Shown in pieces: positions 3,832 to 16,807 of a DNA stretch of 23,898 bases. The first letter of the stretch is position 1; the number at the start of each line of letters is the position of its first letter. The stretch comes from Promethearchaeota archaeon. Its GTDB lineage: Archaea > Asgardarchaeota > Lokiarchaeia > Sigyniarchaeales > SOKP01. Location of the stretch: assembly GCA_016839745.1 (NCBI GenBank), contig JAEOTS010000134.1:1-23898 (forward strand), read 5' to 3'. Made by a program: the position numbers and the translations under genes. A model generated the notes under the pieces. The model was not told the origin of the DNA, made no database searches, and worked only from the letters and a program-made list of their open reading frames with translations.

Positions 3832-6800
3832 TTATACTGCAACTTCAGTAAGGTAAAGAACAACTAATAACAGAGCCCAAATAATCGTTAGGATTATTAA
3901 AATTATTGTTGTATAAAACCTCCACTTGATTGAAATCTTCTGTTTTTTCTCGATTCTATATATATAAATTGCCAATATTGCTCCTAATATAATTATGGAA
4001 GAAAGTATCAGAATTATACCAAAAAGAAAAGATTCAATGTAAGGTATTATTAATGCGAACACAAAAACTGTAAAACTTATCCAAAGAGTTATAAAACGTT
4101 GCATTCTATTCTTAAAAATCTTATCTATGTCGTCAGTTTTCTTGGGTGGGAGTAAAGAAATAAAAATTCCAGAATTTGCTAATGCTAATAGGGTTGCATG
4201 ATCCCCTCCTAGCAAAGGTATTAAACCAATTTCTTTAGAAAAAACTATTCCCACTGTTATACCCGCAAACACACAAAGAATAATTTCTATAACTCTAAGG
4301 TTATTTTTTAAGAAATTGATAAATGAATAATATACTCTTAGAAGAGAATTCTTTAGCTTGACATATATCAATCTTAAATTGTCTAGTATATTATTGAAGA
4401 AAGCCTTCAATTCTTCCAGCATAAAAACAAATAGGTATAACCAAATTCCTATAAAAATCCATGAGAAACTCCATCCAGATAATGATATATTAAAAGTAAT
4501 TATGCTTAACAACAAGAACAAAACGAGAGAATAGAGGAAAGAGCTAATTTTCTTACGTTTAAATGGTTTAAATAACGCTAAATTTATAATCATAAAGAAT
4601 AACAAAGAAAGGCTAAGATTAAGAATTAAATTGGGATTTACAAAGATTTCTAATGCTAAAAATATATCAAAAGATAATAAAACTTCAGTTAGAATGAAAC
4701 TAACAATCCTTAGATTCTTCCTAATCTTTTCAGTTACAGATTTAATGTTGTTGTCTAAGAATGTCAATCCAAGTAAAATAATAAATGACAAAAGAACTAA
4801 GTTTAGCGAAATAAAGAAATCAAGGCTAAGATAATATAATGGCCAAGTAATTAAATTAAGATAAACTAATCTCACAAGTGAATCTTTAATTTTAGATTGG
4901 TTTGACTTGATAAAATCCCAATCTTTCAATAATCTAAATAGGTAGGCGATTTGTATTATTAGGAGAAATATAATTATCGGTATTATCTGAACAAAGAATA
5001 TGGAAATCCAATCAAGATAGAATAAGAATGAAAATCCAATTAAAATTATCCACGAAAAGCTTATAAAGAAATTCGAGGCCTTTCCTAAAAACTTTAAAGC
5101 ATATTTATCAAATAACGCTAGTAAATGTGTGGTCAGGCTTAAAATCAAGACAATTAAATGAAATTCAAACCCAAAAAGTACTAAAGTATTGAGAATGCTA
5201 CCTAAAAGTAGAAAATAGACACCCCATCCTAATATATTCTGTCTTAAATTCTTCCATTTTTCAAATGAAGTCAATTTATCAGGATTAAACTTCCGCCTAA
5301 TATCGAAATATGAATAATTCGTGTAAAATTGCATTAAAATCGTTAAAAACGCTATTAAAACTAGAGAAAGCATAGAATCACTAAATATCCTATATAAAAT
5401 TATAAAAAGGATCCAAGAGATATTGATAAAACTAAAAGTATGAACTATTTCCATATATCCTTCCTTAAGACGCTTAATAGCATAAATTTCTAATATGCTT
5501 ATCAAGAATAACACAATCTGGGAAAACAATAAGCTTTCATAGAGGGCAAAGAATAACTGAAATAAGCCTAAAAACAAAAGAGAGGCTTCTAGATAAATGC
5601 TAAATATAATAAAAGAATAAATTTGCTTTATATTTTTCTTCCATTTCTCACTTCTAGTGAGTTTTCCTGAAAGATAAATTGTATAAGATGTGAAAATCGT
5701 TTCAGATAATAAAACTAAGATAATCCTGAATAAATCAAGAAGACTAAATATAGTGAAAAAAGATACCCAAAATACCGCAAAAAAGATTTGAAAGAAAATA
5801 AAGGCGCACAATAAAATACTTTTTTTAAGTTTGATTTCGATAGTACGATTTATTAATCCGTTTAGTACTAGCATCAATAAAGAAAAAATCATTCCAGAGA
5901 AACTTAATGAAGGATACCCATCTAATAATGGATTATATGTTATTAATAAACTACTTAACAATAATGAAATATATAAGCTAACCACGATGAAAATTGAATT
6001 TAATAGAATGTTCTGTATCTGGTTTCTAACTTTCCTTATTTTACTCGCTTCATATTGAGTTAATTTTTCAATGTAATAAGAGAGAGCATAGAGCGTATAA
6101 AATTGTAAAATCAAGAGTATAACTAGATTTAGTACTAATAAAGATGCATCTATCGCGATAAACTGGTTCAAAAACACGAATAGACTAATGGAAGTAATTA
6201 CATACGCTATTAAATTAAAAGCATATATGATTTTTTCGTTAACCTTCTTTATAAGGTGGATTTCGAATAAGGTTGAGATAAAAAATATTATTATGGAAAT
6301 TAAAACTGTTTCAAAGAAGCCAAAATCCACAGCTTCACTAATCAAACTAAAACTCAGAAGTCCAATCTCAAAATGTAATAACAATGAGAGAACCGATTCA
6401 GCTCTAAGCAAACCAAAACCTTTAAGATCCTCTTGAATTTTAACTTTTTTACTATACAACTTACATGGAATTTGGAATAAGGCAGTATAAAGTATCAAAG
6501 ATAATAAAATTATAATAACCGGAGATTGAAATAAAAGATTTAACACCATAAATTGTAAAACTATTAAGATTATTGGAATTGGAAAGGCATACCACAATAT
6601 AAATCGGTATTCGTAGAGTATTGATCTTAGTAAAATTGAATTTACTAAGATAAAAACAGCAATTGCTAAGTAAATAAAGCCAGGTAGGAAATAGTATGTT
6701 AAATAAGAAAGCGTTAAAGATACACCAAGTGATAGAATCGTTAAGGGAATTATTTTTTTTATCGGGATAATCATCCTAAACTTGTTAAATACGAAAAGAG

Positions 6801-9800
6801 AGCCCCCAAATACCGCTATCGCTAGAAATATTGAAAAAAGTTCGAGACCAGGAATCATAATAAGTGTGAAATAAGTGAACAAAGAGAAGTTTATAACCAG
6901 TATTGTGGAGATTAAGGTATTAAAAAAAGTCTTGTTGAGTTTGAGGAGTCTTGATGAAAATAAACTCAAAGCAAGTGTTATAAAAGCAATATTTATTGAT
7001 ATAGGTAAATTTTTGATTATCGCATTTATAATGCTAAAAATTGTAAGAAAAATTCCAACTAAAGAAATAAAATAAGATCCTACGAGAATTATGTTTTTGA
7101 TGTTCTTAAGATTAGGGAAAAATGACAAAATGAGAAAGAATATACCTAATATTATTAGATTGATTGATAAATTAATCTCTAGCGGTAGAAGGATTGCAGA
7201 GAATAAAGTGAAGAGGAAAGTAATGTTTACAACTATATAGAATAACCAAAGAATAGTTATAATCTTCCATAATCTTAATCGATAAATTATTGGTACTAGC
7301 AAAGAAATAGCGAAAACGACAAACACGATATTGGTTATCAGCACATTATTACTAAACACGTTTTGACTAAACCAATATAAGAAAAACAAACTGAAACTCC
7401 AAACTATTATGAGTACTTGAGAAAAATGCTTTTTAATCCACGAATACCAAAATGGTAATGAAAGTAGTATACAAATTACAAAGGATATTATGAAAGAGCC
7501 ATTAATGCTTAGTATGTCAAAGAAATTTAGAGCATTCGTATAAATATTGACATTTGTAAATATCTCATTAATGAGATAGAAATTAACAAAAGGGACTAAT
7601 ATCCAAAGTCTCCAACCAGTTTTCCAAATTGCCCAGGAAAACTTCCAGTAATAAATTCCGATTGATATGTAAAATAGAGCTATTCCAATATTAATCGTTA
7701 TTAAAAACAAGAAGGTATCCCATAATGGCAGAGAAAGTAGAGCATTTAAGAAGAAATACATAAACACAGGAAAAGAAATTGTGTAAATTGAAAATGCGAT
7801 ATAAAAGCTTATTTTTCTGAACTTTTCAGGTGTTTTATTGTATGTTCCTACATAGGCAATCCCTGTAATGGTTGAAGTTAATGTGAAAGTTAGTATTGGA
7901 TTAAAGTTCATAAAGATAGGGTTATTAAAGAGGATAAAATAGGATAGATAACTCATAAAACTAAAAGTTAGTAGTAGTACGCATGGTCTAATAAACCATT
8001 TATAGCGCTCATCTTTTTGTCTATAGAAAAAATTTCCAGTTAATATTAGGAATATAAATAAAGAAATTGATATGTTGTAAATCAAAGGTATACCTGTATT
8101 TATAATTAATAACAAAAGCGAGGTTATGGAGATTAAAGCGTATAGCGTAAATTTTTCGACCACATTTGTTTTCTTCATGTTGAATACGATTGATAAAAAT
8201 AATACTAAAATCATAGAAAAACCATAAATGAAAAAATAAACTGTGAAATAAGAAAAACTAAATGTGGGAATTAGCATATAGAGATTTAATGTGAAAATCG
8301 CTTTAACAAATATAAACCAACTAAGAGAGATATAAAATATTATACGAAATATAAAATTGCGATTCCTATTAGATATAAATAAGAAAAGCGGCATTAAGAA
8401 GAGTATATAAGAAAAGTATTCGAAAATAATTGGAAATATAGAAAAAAGAGAAAATAAAACCAGTAATGAACCGCTGAATATTTTTATCATTCTAAATTCT
8501 GATGCTCTTTCAATTATAGTATCAAATTTAAGTATATAGTAATTAAGAAACAGATATATAGCACATAGTACAAGTATGATTTGGAGTGCCTGATTCGAAC
8601 TAAAAAATGGAATATTGGAAGAAAATATCCAGAATAAATCAACAAAAATAATTATTAAAGCTAAAGAAAAAAGATAGAAAGTGAGTTTCTTAGATAATCT
8701 CAATGACTCATCAGAAATGGAAAATATCCTTCTTAAATAATAAATAGTAATCGGGCTCATAAAGATGATGATTAGAAGTGGTAATACTAACCTTAAAAGG
8801 ATAGAAATTTGAATAGGCAGAATAAAAATATAAAGAATAATAAGCAATTTAATAAAAATCCAAGCTGAAATTTCGAAAATACTTTTAATTTTTAAGAAAT
8901 CTACTTTAAATAAATATCCACAAACTGCTGAAATGATTAGATATATCGACATGAATATACCTAAATTAGTAATTGTAATTAAGAGTAAAGATTCTGGAAG
9001 ATACAATAGAGAGAGTAAGCTATGAGACGGTATTATTAGTGCTAAAATAGCAGCTATAGAAGTTATAATGGCAAAAAAAGAGATATTCTTGGTGTACTCG
9101 TATATTTTATAGATTTTATAATAATCAAATTTACTTACATCGTATTCGAAAATTCTTTGTTTTAGGTTTTCTAGCAGAATTAAAATGGCAAGGTTTATAA
9201 TGAAAAAAGTCAGACAAGAACAACTTATATTTAGCCAAAAATTGGTTGTTATAGAATCTATTAAACTATAAACCTTTAAGGCAATAAGCACAGATATCGT
9301 TATCCAGATAACAATCTGGGAGGTTTTAAGAGAAACAATACGATTTTCTTTGAGCTTATATTTATCAAAAAGAAATTCCAAGAATCTCAAAAATCCAAAA
9401 AATAAAAATATTGTAGTAAGGATTATGAAATAATAATCAATAACCATTCCAAATCTGATTAGCTCCAATCCTATTATAGTTGGAAGGGACATAATTAACG
9501 CAGATATTAACAGACTATCTACCAATAACATTTTTTCTACAAGTTTACTGAAAACCTTCTTGCTTGAGGAATAAAACAATGGAAGTAGCATTAGTAAGCT
9601 AAAAACTAACAGAGGAATAACAAATACAAGAACCGAGTTATTAGTTAATAAATATATGTAGTAAGAGCTTAGAACGCTTGTAAAACTTAAAGCTAAGATA
9701 TTAATCCCAATTGCACTCTTATCTGAAAAAATTATTCTATTTTTAGATAAAATATTGATGATAAAGCAAATTAGAATAGTCGAGAAGTACGCTGATAAAA

Positions 9801-13069: not shown

Positions 13070-14392
13070 TTAACAAAACTCTGGAAGATAATTTTTTTGC
13101 AATTCCTTCATTTCTTCAAATATTTTGTCAGCCATTTCGAAACTTCCTACATTGGGATCAATCGCTAAAGCTGCTATTGCTAAGTCCTTCGATTTTTGAA
13201 GGATAGCTTCAACACATAGATCTTGGATAGTTGCTTCAATTCGAAGTAAAGCGGCAATATTAGTTGGTAATTTACCCCATTTAACTCCATTTACTCCCTT
13301 CTTATTGACTATTACGGGACACTCAATTACAAGATCCTTAGGTAGATTTTCGATGATGTTGTCATTTGGAATATTAACTGCACTTTCATAAGAATTACTG
13401 TCAGCAATAATTGCTTCGATAATTGGAATTGCTCTTTCTACTGAGGTTCCTTTATAGAACATTCCTTTTTTGAAATACCTTCCTTCTTTTAGACGCTTAT
13501 AGTTTCTCATGATACGTTTATATGTCCTCTTACCACCTTTTTCAGCAAAGTCAATCCAATCTGTCATATCAATAGTTTCAGTAAATTCTTCACCAAACCG
13601 TAAGTATTCACCAAGATGATTATCCCCTACGTACGGAAAATAGCCAAATCTTTTGAAAACTTCAAATGTTAATGAAGAAAATTCGAACCTTTCTTGATGT
13701 TGTTTAAAATACTCTGGAGCTATCTTGTTAAATTTCGGCATTAAATCCATTCCGGAAGAGATTTCCTCAATCCCCATTAAAAATCCAAAATGATTTAATC
13801 CATAAGGTTTTAGTTTTAAATTCTCAAATTTTATTTTGAGCATTTGAGGTAAATGGAATGTCATAGCTCCAATTTGATGACAAAGGCCTATAAATTTAAG
13901 ATTCGGAACTGTCCTTTTAATAGCTAAACATACCCTCGCCATTGGATTAGAAAAATTTATAAAAAAAGCATCAGGACATATATCGTTCACATCTTTTACA
14001 ATTTCCAAAATAGGAGGAATTACTCTAAATGCGTGCATTGTTCCCCCTGGTCCTCCGCATTCACCTAATATTTGAATCGACCCATATTTTCTTGGGATTT
14101 CGTAATCTTCTCTCCATAATTTATAACGATCTCCAACCTCTATTGAGCTTATAATAAAGTCTGCTCCATTCAATGCCTTTTTACGGTCTGTAGTGCGAAT
14201 AATATTAAATTCATTATTATGTATCTTGTTTTCAGCTTCGACTAATTCAAACATGACTTCCAAATGTTCTTTGTTGATATCATGTAGCACTATTGTTGAA
14301 CCTTGTAAAAGATTGCTCTGGTAAAGATCTAACAAAGAAGATGGCCCAAAAGAGGTGCTTCCAGCCCCAATTAGAACGATTTTTTTGTCCAT
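13070..14392 (-). CDS. Glycoside hydrolase family 4 (NAD+/Mn2+-dependent alpha-glucosidase/alpha-galactosidase type)
   Basis: KIVLIGAGS Rossmann motif, GECGGPGG, INFSNPMA, GLCH (metal-binding Cys), GLNH, DNHLGEY, ALAIDP. Confidence 0.93.
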   Translation of the reverse strand: MDKKIVLIGAGSTSFGPSSLLDLYQSNLLQGSTIVLHDINKEHLEVMFELVEAENKIHNNEFNIIRTTDRKKALNGADFIISSIEVGDRYKLWREDYEIPRKYGSIQILGECGGPGGTMHAFRVIPPILEIVKDVNDICPDAFFINFSNPMARVCLAIKRTVPNLKFIGLCHQIGAMTFHLPQMLKIKFENLKLKPYGLNHFGFLMGIEEISSGMDLMPKFNKIAPEYFKQHQERFEFSSLTFEVFKRFGYFPYVGDNHLGEYLRFGEEFTETIDMTDWIDFAEKGGKRTYKRIMRNYKRLKEGRYFKKGMFYKGTSVERAIPIIEAIIADSNSYESAVNIPNDNIIENLPKDLVIECPVIVNKKGVNGVKWGKLPTNIAALLRIEATIQDLCVEAILQKSKDLAIAALAIDPNVGSFEMADKIFEEMKELQKNYLPEFC

Positions 14393-14503: not shown

Positions 14504-14553
14504 AATGGGAAAAAATACCCACAATATTTATTAGTGTACACTCTTTATATATT
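14504..14553 (+). promoter_or_regulatory. Putative archaeal promoter of cassette 1
   Basis: AATGGGA (14504), TATA-like ATTTATTAGT (14526-14535), TTTATATATT (14544); same elements and spacing as 15141-15190. Confidence 0.55.
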
Positions 14554-14565
14554 GTTAATAATGAA

Positions 14566-14752
14566 TTTTTCGCGACATAATACTGATTCATGGGTAGGCT
14601 GCAAGAGCGCCATTATTCCCACAGTATTATGAAGAGAATAAATCCTTATACCTTCTCTTTTTCTTTTTAATTGTTAGGATTTATTCTCTGCGCATAATGT
14701 CTATCAATTTTCAAGAAAAAGTGGGATAAGGGTTTAATTCTTGACGCAAAAA
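14566..14752 (+). ncRNA. Predicted structured RNA / 5' leader, cassette 1
   Basis: Perfect inverted repeats: CATAATACTG 14576-85 / CAGTATTATG 14622-31 (10 bp); AGAGAATAAATCCT 14633-46 / AGGATTTATTCTCT 14676-89 (14 bp); TCAAGAA 14711-17 / TTCTTGA 14738-44 (7 bp). Confidence 0.6.
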
Positions 14753-14774
14753 TCAAAAATCAAAAATCAAAAAT
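14747..14774 (+). repeat. Tandem heptamer (CAAAAAT)x4
   Basis: Four exact copies directly abutting the GGAGGTGA RBS at 14775. Confidence 0.95.
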
Positions 14775-14790
14775 GGAGGTGAAAAAAGAA

Positions 14791-14967
14791 TTGGCAGATA
14801 ATAGAGAATCTGATCCCATATTGGAGTATTATAAAGATTGGAGTTCTGATCTTGCGCCTATTATGATGTCATTTGACATCTCAGATGCCTATCCTGGTAG
14901 GATTGAAAGTGAAGACCAGAAAAAAATAGCTTATCTGAGACGTAAATATCAAAAACTATCAATATAA
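14791..14967 (+). CDS. Small protein A, 58 aa (MADNRESDPILEYYKDWSSDLAPIMMSFDISDAYPGRIESEDQKKIAYLRRKYQKLSI)
   Basis: GGAGGTGA RBS at 14775-82, 8 nt before TTG 14791. The track's ATG at 14773 overlaps the RBS and is in the same frame. T-rich terminator-like run follows. Confidence 0.7.
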   Translation: MADNRESDPILEYYKDWSSDLAPIMMSFDISDAYPGRIESEDQKKIAYLRRKYQKLSI

Positions 14968-14997
14968 TTTTTATTTTTTTCTATTTATTTTTTTCTA
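14968..14997 (+). terminator. Oligo-T archaeal terminator-like tract
   Basis: Several runs of T immediately after the stop codon of small protein A. Confidence 0.5.
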
Positions 14998-15140
14998 TAA
15001 TCTATTGACTGTACGAGCTAAAAGTTCGGAAAGCTTATATTTAAACAGCTTCTATGCCAATAAGCTTGATTTATATTCAATTTTAGATAATATTAAAATT
15101 GGGGGTTTTAAAGTTTTCATAATTATTTGAGTCTTTAACA

Positions 15141-15190
15141 AATGGGAGCTAATTGTGAAACATTTAAATAGTACCATCGTTTTATATATT
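15141..15190 (+). promoter_or_regulatory. Putative archaeal promoter of cassette 2
   Basis: AATGGGA (15141), TTTAAATAGT (15163-72), TTTATATATT (15181); the 40-nt offset between the first and last motifs is identical to cassette 1. Confidence 0.55.
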
Positions 15191-15195
15191 CTAAT

Positions 15196-15403
15196 GATCT
15201 TAAATATTACTACTAAATATTCAATTGTAAGAGTTATAGGTCTTTTATTAGTTGTGGTAGTAGTAGTATTATAGATGAGAGCCGATCCTTTTCGATCTTC
15301 TTTTTAATCTTTTCTTGGATATGCTCTCTCATCAAAGAATCTAAATTAAATTGAGATCTTAATGGATTCCGGCACCTCAGAAGAATAAAAAAAATGGAGG
15401 TGA
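15196..15403 (+). ncRNA. Predicted structured RNA / 5' leader, cassette 2
   Basis: AATATTACTACTA 15203-15 / TAGTAGTAGTATT 15258-70 (13 bp, one G-U); GATGAGAG 15274-81 / CTCTCATC 15326-33; GAATC 15337-41 / GATTC 15365-69; anti-SD CACCTC 15373-78 / GAGGTG 15397-402. Confidence 0.6.
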
Positions 15404-15407
15404 AAAA

Positions 15408-15587
15408 ATGGAAAAAGAAGTTCTTGATAAACTTGAAAGTCAGATTGCCTTAGAAAATAATTCGATTTCTATTAAGGAGGAAAACAAACATTCTGACGAA
15501 AGTACATTTTGGAAATACCTAGATTATTCAAACTGGATTCCAGGAGAAATTGAAATTGAGGAAGAAATTACTAAAGATTATGATTAG
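15408..15587 (+). CDS. Small acidic protein B, 59 aa (MEKEVLDKLESQIALENNSISIKEENKHSDESTFWKYLDYSNWIPGEIEIEEEITKDYD)
   Basis: Manually translated; GGAGGTGA RBS at 15396-403 just before ATG 15408; shares a motif with small protein A. Missing from the ORF track. Confidence 0.7.
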   Translation: MEKEVLDKLESQIALENNSISIKEENKHSDESTFWKYLDYSNWIPGEIEIEEEITKDYD

Positions 15588-15631: not shown

Positions 15632-16807
15632 CTAATTGATTATACTTTCTATTCTTTCTAAGGCTGCTTTTATTTTATCAACTGGTTGAGTTAAGGCAAA
15701 TCTCACAAATCCTTCTCCATATTTGCCAAAACCATTACCAGGTGTGAGGATTACTCCCAGATCTATTAATTTTTTCACAAAATCCATGCTATTCGTTTCT
15801 CCTTCTGGTATGTGAGTCCAGACGAAAAAAGTTGCTTTTGGTTTCTTTGTTTCCCATCCAATATTATTTAAACCCTTTACTAACACATTTCGCCTTATTT
15901 CATATGTTTTGACAGTTTCTTTTACTATTTTTGGTTTTTCTTCTGATACATATTCATCTAAACCTTTTGCCACTGCTTTTTGGATAAACCTTGGACAACC
16001 AGAGTCAATATGAGACTTAACATTTCTAATTCCTGTTATTATATCTTTATGCCCAACAGCCCAACCACATCTAAATCCCGTCATACAAAACATCTTCGAA
16101 GCGCTATTAATTTCAATGTGATTCTGATCTATTTCTAAAAGCGATGGCGCTGTGTAATCTTCATATGTAAACTCTGAATAAGGATTATCATAGACAATGA
16201 GGAACTTATAGTCCTCAGCGTAATCTGATGCTTTTTTTAGAAATTCTTTAGGTGCTATTGCTCCAGTAGGATTATTAGGGTAATTTAAATACATTATTTT
16301 AGCTTTTTTGAGTGTTCCTATATCAATGGCCTCAAAATCAGGTAAAAAATTATTTTTTTCTAATAGTGGGATTGGATGAGCGATTCCATCACAAAGTTTT
16401 GTAGCACCGTTCTCATAAACCGGATAACCTGGATTCGGGCATAACACAATATCTCCCGGGTTAATAAATGCTCTGGCGATATTAGCTACTCCTTCCTTTC
16501 CTCCGATTAAACTAGTAACTTCGTTGTTTGCATCGAAATCTAAGTTAAATCTTACTTTATACCACCTTTGGACGGCCTCTCTGAAATCTTGTTCACCCAT
16601 GCTTGTAGGATAATTCTGATTTTCGGGCTTTTTTACTTGTTTAATCATCTCGTTTATAATCAAATCGGGAGTTGTTAAATCGGGATCCCCGATACCTAAT
16701 GGAATGAAGTCAATTCCTTCCATTTTCTTTTTTTTTATTATTTGTTCAATTTCAGCAAAGATGTATACAGGCAGTTTGTTTATTCTATCAGCATATTTTA
16801 TATTAAT
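15632..16807 (-). CDS. dapL: PLP-dependent class I/II aminotransferase, LL-diaminopimelate aminotransferase-like; probable non-canonical ATT start
   Basis: LGIGDPD, GGKEG, NYPNNPTG, YDNPY, SASKMFCMTGFRCG (PLP Lys). The family-typical N-terminus (YADRINKLPVYIFAEIE) lies in frame upstream of the track's ATG 16723. Substrate specificity, and so the gene symbol, is tentative. Confidence 0.8.
   Translation of the reverse strand: MNIKYADRINKLPVYIFAEIEQIIKKKKMEGIDFIPLGIGDPDLTTPDLIINEMIKQVKKPENQNYPTSMGEQDFREAVQRWYKVRFNLDFDANNEVTSLIGGKEGVANIARAFINPGDIVLCPNPGYPVYENGATKLCDGIAHPIPLLEKNNFLPDFEAIDIGTLKKAKIMYLNYPNNPTGAIAPKEFLKKASDYAEDYKFLIVYDNPYSEFTYEDYTAPSLLEIDQNHIEINSASKMFCMTGFRCGWAVGHKDIITGIRNVKSHIDSGCPRFIQKAVAKGLDEYVSEEKPKIVKETVKTYEIRRNVLVKGLNNIGWETKKPKATFFVWTHIPEGETNSMDFVKKLIDLGVILTPGNGFGKYGEGFVRFALTQPVDKIKAALERIESIIN

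Follow-up and report, generated by a model that had tools for sequence, protein, structure and literature searches.

Leader-peptide attenuation is a textbook bacterial mechanism that requires a ribosome to follow closely behind RNA polymerase. In the pheST (pheM), ilvGMEDA, ilvBN, leu, and thr leaders of Escherichia coli, a short 5' open reading frame (ORF) ends in a run of codons related to the controlled gene, and its stop codon adjoins the first of several mutually exclusive helices. We know of no leader-peptide attenuation in Archaea, and a literature search found no described case there. Here we analyzed a 23,898-nt stretch of DNA (hereafter, the window) from a Promethearchaeota archaeon of the class Lokiarchaeia (contig JAEOTS010000134.1), in which the 1.24-kb gap between a GH4 gene and an aminotransferase gene holds two plus-strand units. 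Each unit comprises a promoter, a short upstream ORF (uORF), competing RNA helices, a Shine–Dalgarno (SD) block, and a small-protein gene (ORF1 in unit 1, ORF2 in unit 2; Table 1). Comparison with related genomes makes it likely that each unit is a ribosome-mediated leader-peptide attenuator sensing the supply of branched-chain aminoacyl-tRNAs. If so, this would be, as far as the literature search found, the first leader-peptide attenuation system in Archaea, and direct genomic evidence of regulatory transcription–translation coupling in the closest prokaryotic relatives of eukaryotes.

Both the terminal codon run and the stop codon adjoining the first of the exclusive helices recur in the present leaders. 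In addition, pheST encodes an aminoacyl-tRNA synthetase (aaRS), as do the leuS and ileS genes found behind the same leader in relatives, and the ilv leaders contain mixed Ile/Val/Leu runs, as observed here. Unlike the E. coli leaders, these leaders belong to an Asgard host, start with an apparently leaderless leader ORF, and in the window precede genes for small proteins instead of biosynthetic enzymes. Their fold is unrelated to the Rfam leader families in sequence or structure, and no hairpin-plus-U-run terminator follows the switch, the U runs being located inside the loop of the first hairpin. The novelty lies in the host domain, the probably leaderless leader ORF, and the unrelated RNA fold, which has no Rfam entry.

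Other described systems share part of this layout. In the translational attenuation of ermC and cat, a ribosome on the leader ORF selects among helices, one of which masks the SD, comparable to the anti-SD of unit 2 and to masking by segment 3 (Table 1); however, the trigger there is a drug-dependent nascent-peptide stall and not codon supply, and the pairing alternates between 1:2/3:4 and 2:3, whereas here segments 2 and 3 compete for segment 1. TnaC, SpeFL, and the eukaryotic conserved-peptide uORFs (CPuORFs) are likewise short uORFs with a conserved peptide, represented here by an N-terminal motif and, in the unit-1 type, by fixed Trp and Gly residues. In contrast to these, our leaders give no evidence of nascent-chain arrest, and since the variable part of the uORF is the gene-matching codon run, tRNA supply is a better candidate signal than metabolite sensing in the exit tunnel. 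The T-box leaders of Gram-positive aaRS genes are similar at the level of the regulon, in which aaRS and amino-acid genes respond, by way of alternative helices, to charging of the cognate tRNA, but T-boxes use no uORF, which is present here. No T-box match was obtained in the window leaders (the leuS and ileS leaders were not part of that scan), and neither a specifier loop nor a T-box sequence was seen.

Upstream ORFs and the genes behind them

Alignment of 22 homologues from the same genus revealed that uORF 1 is intact with an invariant ATG in all of them; indels within the uORF are all multiples of three, whereas those just 3' of it are not. A motif search over 47 Promethearchaeota loci placed the uORF 5' of ORF1 in 44, the sequence itself revealed it in two further loci, and it was present in all 20 weaker covariance-model matches from other genera. 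The alternative frames of 70 distinct uORFs (20–32 codons) contained 225 and 153 stops. The encoded peptides share the N-terminal motif M-x-F/I-S-x-H/N-N-T-T, followed in the unit-1 type by W-x-G, and the Val/Leu run of the unit-2 uORF varies between species by whole codons. The uORFs are probably leaderless or nearly so, judging from the conserved TATA box, which starts 34 nt (unit 1) or 31 nt (unit 2) before the uORF ATG and is located ~24–32 nt 5' of it in paralogous leaders. The position of this TATA box and the lack of another promoter suggest that the uORF and the downstream gene share one transcript, and in both units a short ORF stands at its predicted 5' end.

Weak covariance-model matches in other genomes precede different genes. 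Four of them lie in front of a 966-aa archaeal leucyl-tRNA synthetase (LeuRS; NF008957, 1084 bits; TIGR00395, 938 bits). When LeuRS was used as an independent starting point, a uORF of 26–30 codons was found 215–240 nt upstream in all 29 loci with enough upstream DNA. These uORFs share the N-terminal motif, the TATA spacing, the post-stop hairpin, and the U tract, and their last 10 codons include on average 6.3 Leu, 0.0 Ile, and 1.0 Val codons. Six different Leu codons are used in the runs (132 TTA and 49 others), which argues for selection on the decoded amino acid and not only on the RNA. At least 13 leuS leaders are recognized by the unit-1 covariance model; the consensus fold of their 3' part consists only of the helix between the U-rich tract and the purine tract (Y:R helix), and the leuS leaders have no strong SD. 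A second isoleucyl-tRNA synthetase (IleRS) paralogue (954–967 aa) is preceded by a uORF with an Ile run (seven Ile in the last 10 codons) in three of three loci, an acyl-CoA dehydrogenase by Val-rich uORFs (six Val in the last 10 codons), and an FrhB-like iron–sulfur protein by uORFs with mixed Ile/Val/Leu tails in five genomes, including the present one (contig C43). Among the small-protein cassettes, those of the unit-2 type and of a third, 'PAE..IAW' type contain Val/Leu runs, and those of the unit-1 type have a mixed Ile/Val/Leu tail.

From this distribution we lean towards a lokiarchaeial family regulon controlled by attenuation, in which leaderless peptides would set the expression of LeuRS, the second IleRS, the acyl-CoA dehydrogenase, the FrhB-like protein, and three small-protein families through one bistable module. 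Such a regulon would give a regulatory context, namely branched-chain amino-acid supply, to three uncharacterized small-protein families and the FrhB-like gene.

Two of the leader groups exhibited features of their own. In the third leader of this genome (contig C43, ~6690–8400, plus strand), a TATA box precedes a uORF of 28 codons whose tail consists of Ile/Leu/Val codons; next come a post-stop hairpin containing U7 runs, an SD, and the gene for the 485-aa FrhB-like 4Fe-4S protein. This copy was missed by the covariance-model search of the genome and found by the uORF scan. In the second-IleRS leaders (L206, L208, and L210), the downstream fold is unlike that of the window, and the loop of a 13-bp hairpin, CCACATCC, is complementary to GGATGTGG, which lies directly 5' of the uORF ATG.

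An initial annotation, made from the letters of the window alone, had proposed either an undescribed cis-regulatory RNA or a dual-function RNA. The former proposal stands insofar as the element is conserved, structured, and uncatalogued and contains mutually exclusive helices, but not as a purely RNA-based element, the uORF having been overlooked. The latter found no support, as a conserved uORF spans hairpin 1 and its codon run tracks the downstream gene in relatives. This tracking is also the reason why we moved the element from the class of unknown cis-regulatory RNAs to that of leader-peptide attenuators.

The same data bear on the possibility of a plain two-gene micro-protein operon without amino-acid sensing, in which the leaderless ORF would encode a functional peptide (polar head, hydrophobic tail) and the spacer would only govern how much of the SD-led second cistron is translated, or its stability. 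Archaeal operons usually begin with a leaderless gene and continue with one led by an SD, which counts for this explanation, as do the conservation of the N-terminal uORF motif beyond pairing needs and the hydrophobic tails of many uORFs. We nevertheless consider such an operon unlikely, because the tail switches from a Val run to a Leu or Ile run exactly where the downstream gene encodes LeuRS or IleRS, clades with the same RNA sequence differ in the C-terminal frame, and the unit-1 tails contain Lys, Arg, and Pro and are not membrane-like. The fixed spacing from stop codon to helix and the two competing helices would also be left unexplained.

Competing helices downstream of the uORF

Three consecutive hairpins with entirely different stems had been described for each unit. 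Two of them were reinterpreted: 'hairpin 1' is part of the uORF, and 'hairpin 3' supplies one side of a long-range helix in competition with hairpin 2. Moreover, the stems do not differ entirely, since the hairpin-1 arms of both units share an AAUA.UACU / AGUAUUAU core. The invariant uORF ATG is located 15 nt 5' of hairpin 1, and the ORF spans both arms, with its stop at the 3' base. Ten stem pairs of hairpin 1 are kept in 19–22 of 22 sequences, one of the pairs switching between AU and GC (11 vs 8).

Hairpin 2 follows the stop codon after 0–5 nt in most of 102 cassettes and consists of 11–16 bp and a U-rich loop of ~30 nt. The 11-mer TTCTTTTTAAT reported as common to the two loops was confirmed at 14661–71 and 15298–308. 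The arms of this post-stop hairpin, segments 1 and 2, were 99.3% paired in a set of 46 distinct unit-1 leaders, in which two pairs differed in both partners, and several stem positions exhibited three to four pair types among 47 non-redundant leaders of all classes in a structure-anchored count (the MAFFT alignment misaligned the 5' arms). The alternative helix between segments 1 and 3 was 86.8% paired in the unit-1 leaders, with double changes in four pairs, and the Y:R helix contained 17 pairs with changes on both sides; slid controls gave ~43–56% paired for these two helices and ~43–59% with the post-stop hairpin included. The initial annotation had staked its reading on homologues with compensatory changes, and these were found. 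Segment 1 has two mutually exclusive partners, segments 2 and 3, so that the helices compete. The extended form (segment 1 with segment 3, plus the Y:R helix) is the minimum free energy (MFE) structure in most species, and the two forced states differ by ~2 kcal/mol on average. Simultaneous formation of the segment 1–segment 2 hairpin and the Y:R helix as a pseudoknot was judged sterically unlikely, since a loop of ~5 nt would have to cross a 12–24-bp helix. Folding of leader 1 yielded −55.1 kcal/mol, strongly separated from shuffled controls (z score −5.2; 0 of 200 shuffles as good), and the result for leader 2 was weak (z score −2.0; 6 of 200 shuffles).

To trace the RNA domain, we used a covariance model (R1) of the region 3' of the uORF, built only from unit-1 homologues. 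R1 matched 99 of the 131 genomes searched from the family to which the window belongs (8 genera); none of 19 genomes from the other families of the order gave a match. In the window, the best non-self plus-strand match of R1 was unit 2 at 15265–15379 (25.7 bits; E value 7e-4). Recovery of unit 2 by a unit-1-only model indicates that the two RNA domains are paralogous, whereas the small proteins, which had been taken as part of paralogous cassettes, are only remotely related (see below). Minus-strand matches simply reflect hairpin symmetry. No known RNA family was recognized in the window leaders, in agreement with the first reading: an Rfam scan at permissive thresholds returned only chance-level scores, the best being 22.6 bits against a threshold of 150, and Phe_leader scored 19.6 bits against 55 (E value 2.6). 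With ~100 Asgard species carrying the RNA domain, the element family constitutes a sequence-defined system and is a new family of structured RNAs in a clade that has hardly been explored.

The absence of a matching RNA family and the bistability of the fold would also suit a riboregulator that binds a ligand or a protein (riboswitch-like, or with an Sm-like or other protein at the U-rich loop) and toggles the folds, the uORF being secondary. The loop sequence CUUUUUCU points in the same direction, being nearly invariant across 47 diverse leaders though pairing alone would permit covariation. We regard this explanation as improbable; neither a multi-helix junction nor a pocket-like core is conserved, the conserved positions being clustered in the uORF ends, the stop-adjacent stem, and the U tract, and binding of a ligand or protein does not explain why the identity of the run tracks the gene.

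Modelled SD exposure in the 46 unit-1 leaders averaged 0.32 when segment 1 was forced to pair with segment 2 and 0.56 when it was forced to pair with segment 3, and five leaders shifted from ~0.01 to ~0.85. Higher exposure in the extended state of many species, the stop codon abutting segment 1, and the complementarity in unit 1 between the 5' part of uORF 1 and the 3' part of the SD are what would be seen under translational coupling by a kinetic trap, in which the local hairpin forms first and segment 3 or the anti-SD masks the SD, and a ribosome finishing the uORF melts the hairpin and lets the extended refold expose the SD, so that ORF expression would report uORF translation with no sensing of amino acids. 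Because it leaves the Leu and Ile runs ahead of LeuRS and IleRS unaccounted for, and because the leuS leaders have no strong SD to unmask, coupling of this kind is very improbable. A type I toxin–antitoxin function, which calls for a membrane-spanning toxic peptide and an antisense RNA partner, seems unlikely as judged from the peptides: some uORF tails are hydrophobic, but those of the unit-1 type are charged.

Proposed attenuation mechanism

Ribosome-mediated attenuation is our preferred reading because a gene-matched codon run is combined with a stop codon abutting a two-partner helix and with a conserved oligo-U ~20–35 nt past the stop. Transcription would start at or a few bases before the uORF ATG, as the TATA position suggests. 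The last codons of the uORF form the Ile/Val/Leu run and, at the same time, the 3' arm of hairpin 1, and it is in this run that a translating ribosome may stall. When branched-chain aminoacyl-tRNAs are scarce, the ribosome would stall there and leave segment 1 free; when they are plentiful, it would be parked on the stop and cover segment 1, the first 9–12 nt of which lie within the footprint of a ribosome at the stop codon. Segment 1, which abuts the stop, would pair either with segment 2, giving the local hairpin with its U5 loop, or with segment 3, giving the extended helix that zips the U-rich tract to the purine tract. The ribosome position would thereby select the fold and set the expression of the small-protein gene.

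Oligo-U is an archaeal termination signal. Candidate outputs of the switch are premature termination at the oligo-U, SD occlusion by segment 3 or the anti-SD, or both. Regarding the output elements, the loop has invariant U5 runs, many unit-1 leaders, though not the one in the window, are predicted to mask the SD, and unit 2 contains an anti-SD, CACCUC, which pairs with the SD in its MFE structure. In the window clade, the 5' half of segment 1 (14633–38) can pair with 14653–58 directly before the U runs, which makes a terminator-like hairpin possible in this clade; the pairing is not universal. One option for the polarity is that free segment 1 promotes termination, so that the genes would be on when branched-chain amino acids are plentiful. 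This would suit the catabolic dehydrogenase in amino-acid-fermenting Lokiarchaeia, yet it reverses bacterial aaRS control. Modelling of SD exposure cannot fix the output or the polarity, since it reveals a family trend only and no difference in either window unit.

Several observations weigh against attenuation. In unit 1 of the window, SD exposure is the same in both states (0.48 vs 0.51), and the SD of unit 2 is occluded in all states (probability of being unpaired, 0.10–0.31). No canonical terminator was found 3' of the switch in the leader. The cognate match between run and gene was judged in relatives, the small proteins of the window having no assigned function behind their Ile/Val/Leu and Val/Leu runs; unit 1 has a brief run of mixed composition (Ile-Ile-Pro-Thr-Val-Leu). 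Because the run codons are reverse-complementary to Asn/Thr codons on the 5' side of hairpin 1, part of the peptide conservation may reflect constraint on the RNA, and in one clade the C-terminal uORF frame is shifted while the RNA is kept. Finally, valS has no such uORF in 25 loci (L169–L193), although Val-run leaders precede other genes.

If attenuation is the correct explanation, the system would make it possible to study the interplay of coupling, oligo-U termination, and leaderless initiation in the closest lineage to eukaryotes, and to learn which amino acids these amino-acid-fermenting organisms monitor.

Locus features, promoters, and small proteins

Table 1 Features of the two units and their flanking genes, with positions in the window
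Feature	Positions	Strand	Basis or remark
GH4 gene	13070–14392	minus	Pfam Glyco_hydro_4
Unit 1 promoter: ATGGGAA..CCCA element, B recognition element (BRE)-like purine stretch, TATA box 14526–14534	14504–14534	plus	nearly invariant in 22 same-genus homologues
uORF 1, 23 codons, Ile/Val/Leu-rich tail, stop TGA 14630–32	14561–14632	plus	ORF conservation
Hairpin 1: 5' arm 14576–85 (His-Asn-Thr codons), 3' arm 14622–31 (last codons and stop)	14576–14631	plus	RNAalifold, pair counts
Unit 1 post-stop hairpin: segment 1 14633–45, U-rich loop with U5 runs 14658–62 and 14664–68, segment 2 14677–89	14633–14689	plus	
Purine tract 14713–25 (partner of U-rich tract) and segment 3 14726–42 (alternative partner of segment 1)	14713–14742	plus	
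(CAAAAAT)x4 spacer between switch and SD, unit 1	14747–14774	plus	sequence
Unit 1 SD block, GGAGGTG at 14775–81	14769–14787	plus	exact 19-mer common to unit 2
ORF1, 58 aa, TTG start, Lokiarchaeia-specific family	14791–14967	plus	
T-rich stretch 3' of ORF1, likely archaeal terminator	14968–15000	plus	predicted from sequence
Unit 2 promoter: ATGGGA element and TATA box TTTAAATA (15163–70)	15141–15170	plus	conserved in 6 homologues
uORF 2, 26 codons, Leu3-Val6-Leu end, stop TAG 15272–74	15194–15274	plus	conserved in 6 homologues
Unit 2 post-stop hairpin with U-rich loop and shared 11-mer 15298–308	15274–15333	plus	fold, covariance-model match
Unit 2 downstream partner of segment 1 15364–73 and anti-SD CACCTC 15373–78	15353–15378	plus	fold
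Unit 2 SD block	15390–15408	plus	exact 19-mer
ORF2, 59 aa, remote ORF1 relative (shared LD..S..PG.IE.E core)	15408–15587	plus	
Class I/II aminotransferase	15632–16723	minus	LL-DAP-aminotransferase-like, score below NCBIfam cut-off

The promoter motifs recorded in the initial annotation were reproduced at the same offsets in both units, with AATGGGA at 14504 and 15141, TAGT at +28, and TTTATATATT at +40. However, other species do not preserve TTTATATATT (14544–53 in unit 1), then read as a promoter element; the TATA box that is conserved coincides with the stretch containing TAGT. Across the window (14504–14522) and L016–L021, L059, L076, L124, and L125, the ATGGGAA element forms an inverted repeat, TGGG..CCCA, in the window clade and a direct repeat, ATGGGAA-N4-ATGGGTA, in other clades. 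Located between the divergent GH4 gene and the cassette, this element could be a shared transcription-factor site.

The identical 19-nt SD block was likewise verified in both units. Within three mismatches, it occurs twice in the window against 0.07 expected, a number reached by 0 of 100 shuffles, and the two window copies are the only exact ones in the 3.5-Mb assembly. Two near-matches elsewhere in the genome were discarded as ordinary SD contexts without a leader. Among 46 unit-1 homologues, GGAGGTG is kept in 43 and replaced by AGAGGTG in the other three. The CAAAAAT spacer has four copies in the window and one to three in close relatives, and this variation suggests that its length is evolving by repeat slippage.

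The two small ORFs were confirmed at their annotated positions. The ORF1 family comprises 293 clusters, all 'hypothetical' and without a Pfam domain. Pairwise differences among ORF1 sequences are distributed over the codon positions as 26/23/51%, which indicates purifying selection; the corresponding values for ORF2 are 31/30/39%. An AlphaFold2 model of ORF1 (23 sequences) was uninformative, with a predicted local distance difference test (pLDDT) score of 65 and a predicted template-modelling (pTM) score of 0.27. Comparison of ORF1 with ORF2 gave no BLASTP match and nothing significant in Pfam, and profile–profile alignment with hhalign gave a weak link (probability 50.6%; E value 1.6e-4).

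We placed the start of ORF1 at the TTG/ATG position because the frame opens only 3' of the SD in L012–15 and L019. This start codon, 7–9 nt after GGAGGTG, is TTG in the window; at the homologous positions (L016–L024 and L059–L083 among them), four close relatives and L018 have ATG, ~11 species have ACG, and more distant species have CTG or TTG. In L019, a stop just upstream makes ACG the first candidate. All codons at this position are one-base neighbours of ATG, which suggests near-cognate initiation of ORF1.

Behind the same leader in other genera of the family (L116–L134), a third type of small protein was observed, which is 45–65 aa long and ends in ..PAE..I..E.IAW. The proteins of L119 and L121 bridge the gap between this type and ORF1, and ORF2 is tied to the third type through the same core; by these sequence resemblances, ORF1, ORF2, and the third type seem to form one superfamily of small proteins.

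In the wider sample, DNA similarity revealed unit 1 with its uORF in 23 of the 24 genomes searched within the genus, six of which contain both units, and the ORF1 family is encoded in 47 further loci. The neighbourhood is kept, the GH4 gene being divergent upstream in 38 of these 47 loci and the aminotransferase gene convergent downstream in 46. A mobile repeat, such as a miniature inverted-repeat transposable element (MITE), was rejected, as the 3.5-Mb assembly contains two tandem copies and one diverged copy (contig C43), and it is also contradicted by these stable neighbours of unit 1. Where unit 2 is absent (L037–L083), the stop codon of ORF1 is only ~20–45 nt from that of the convergent aminotransferase gene; at this distance, the two transcripts must either overlap at their 3' ends or use a common terminator region, and a transcript reading through from the cassette would run antisense to the aminotransferase gene.

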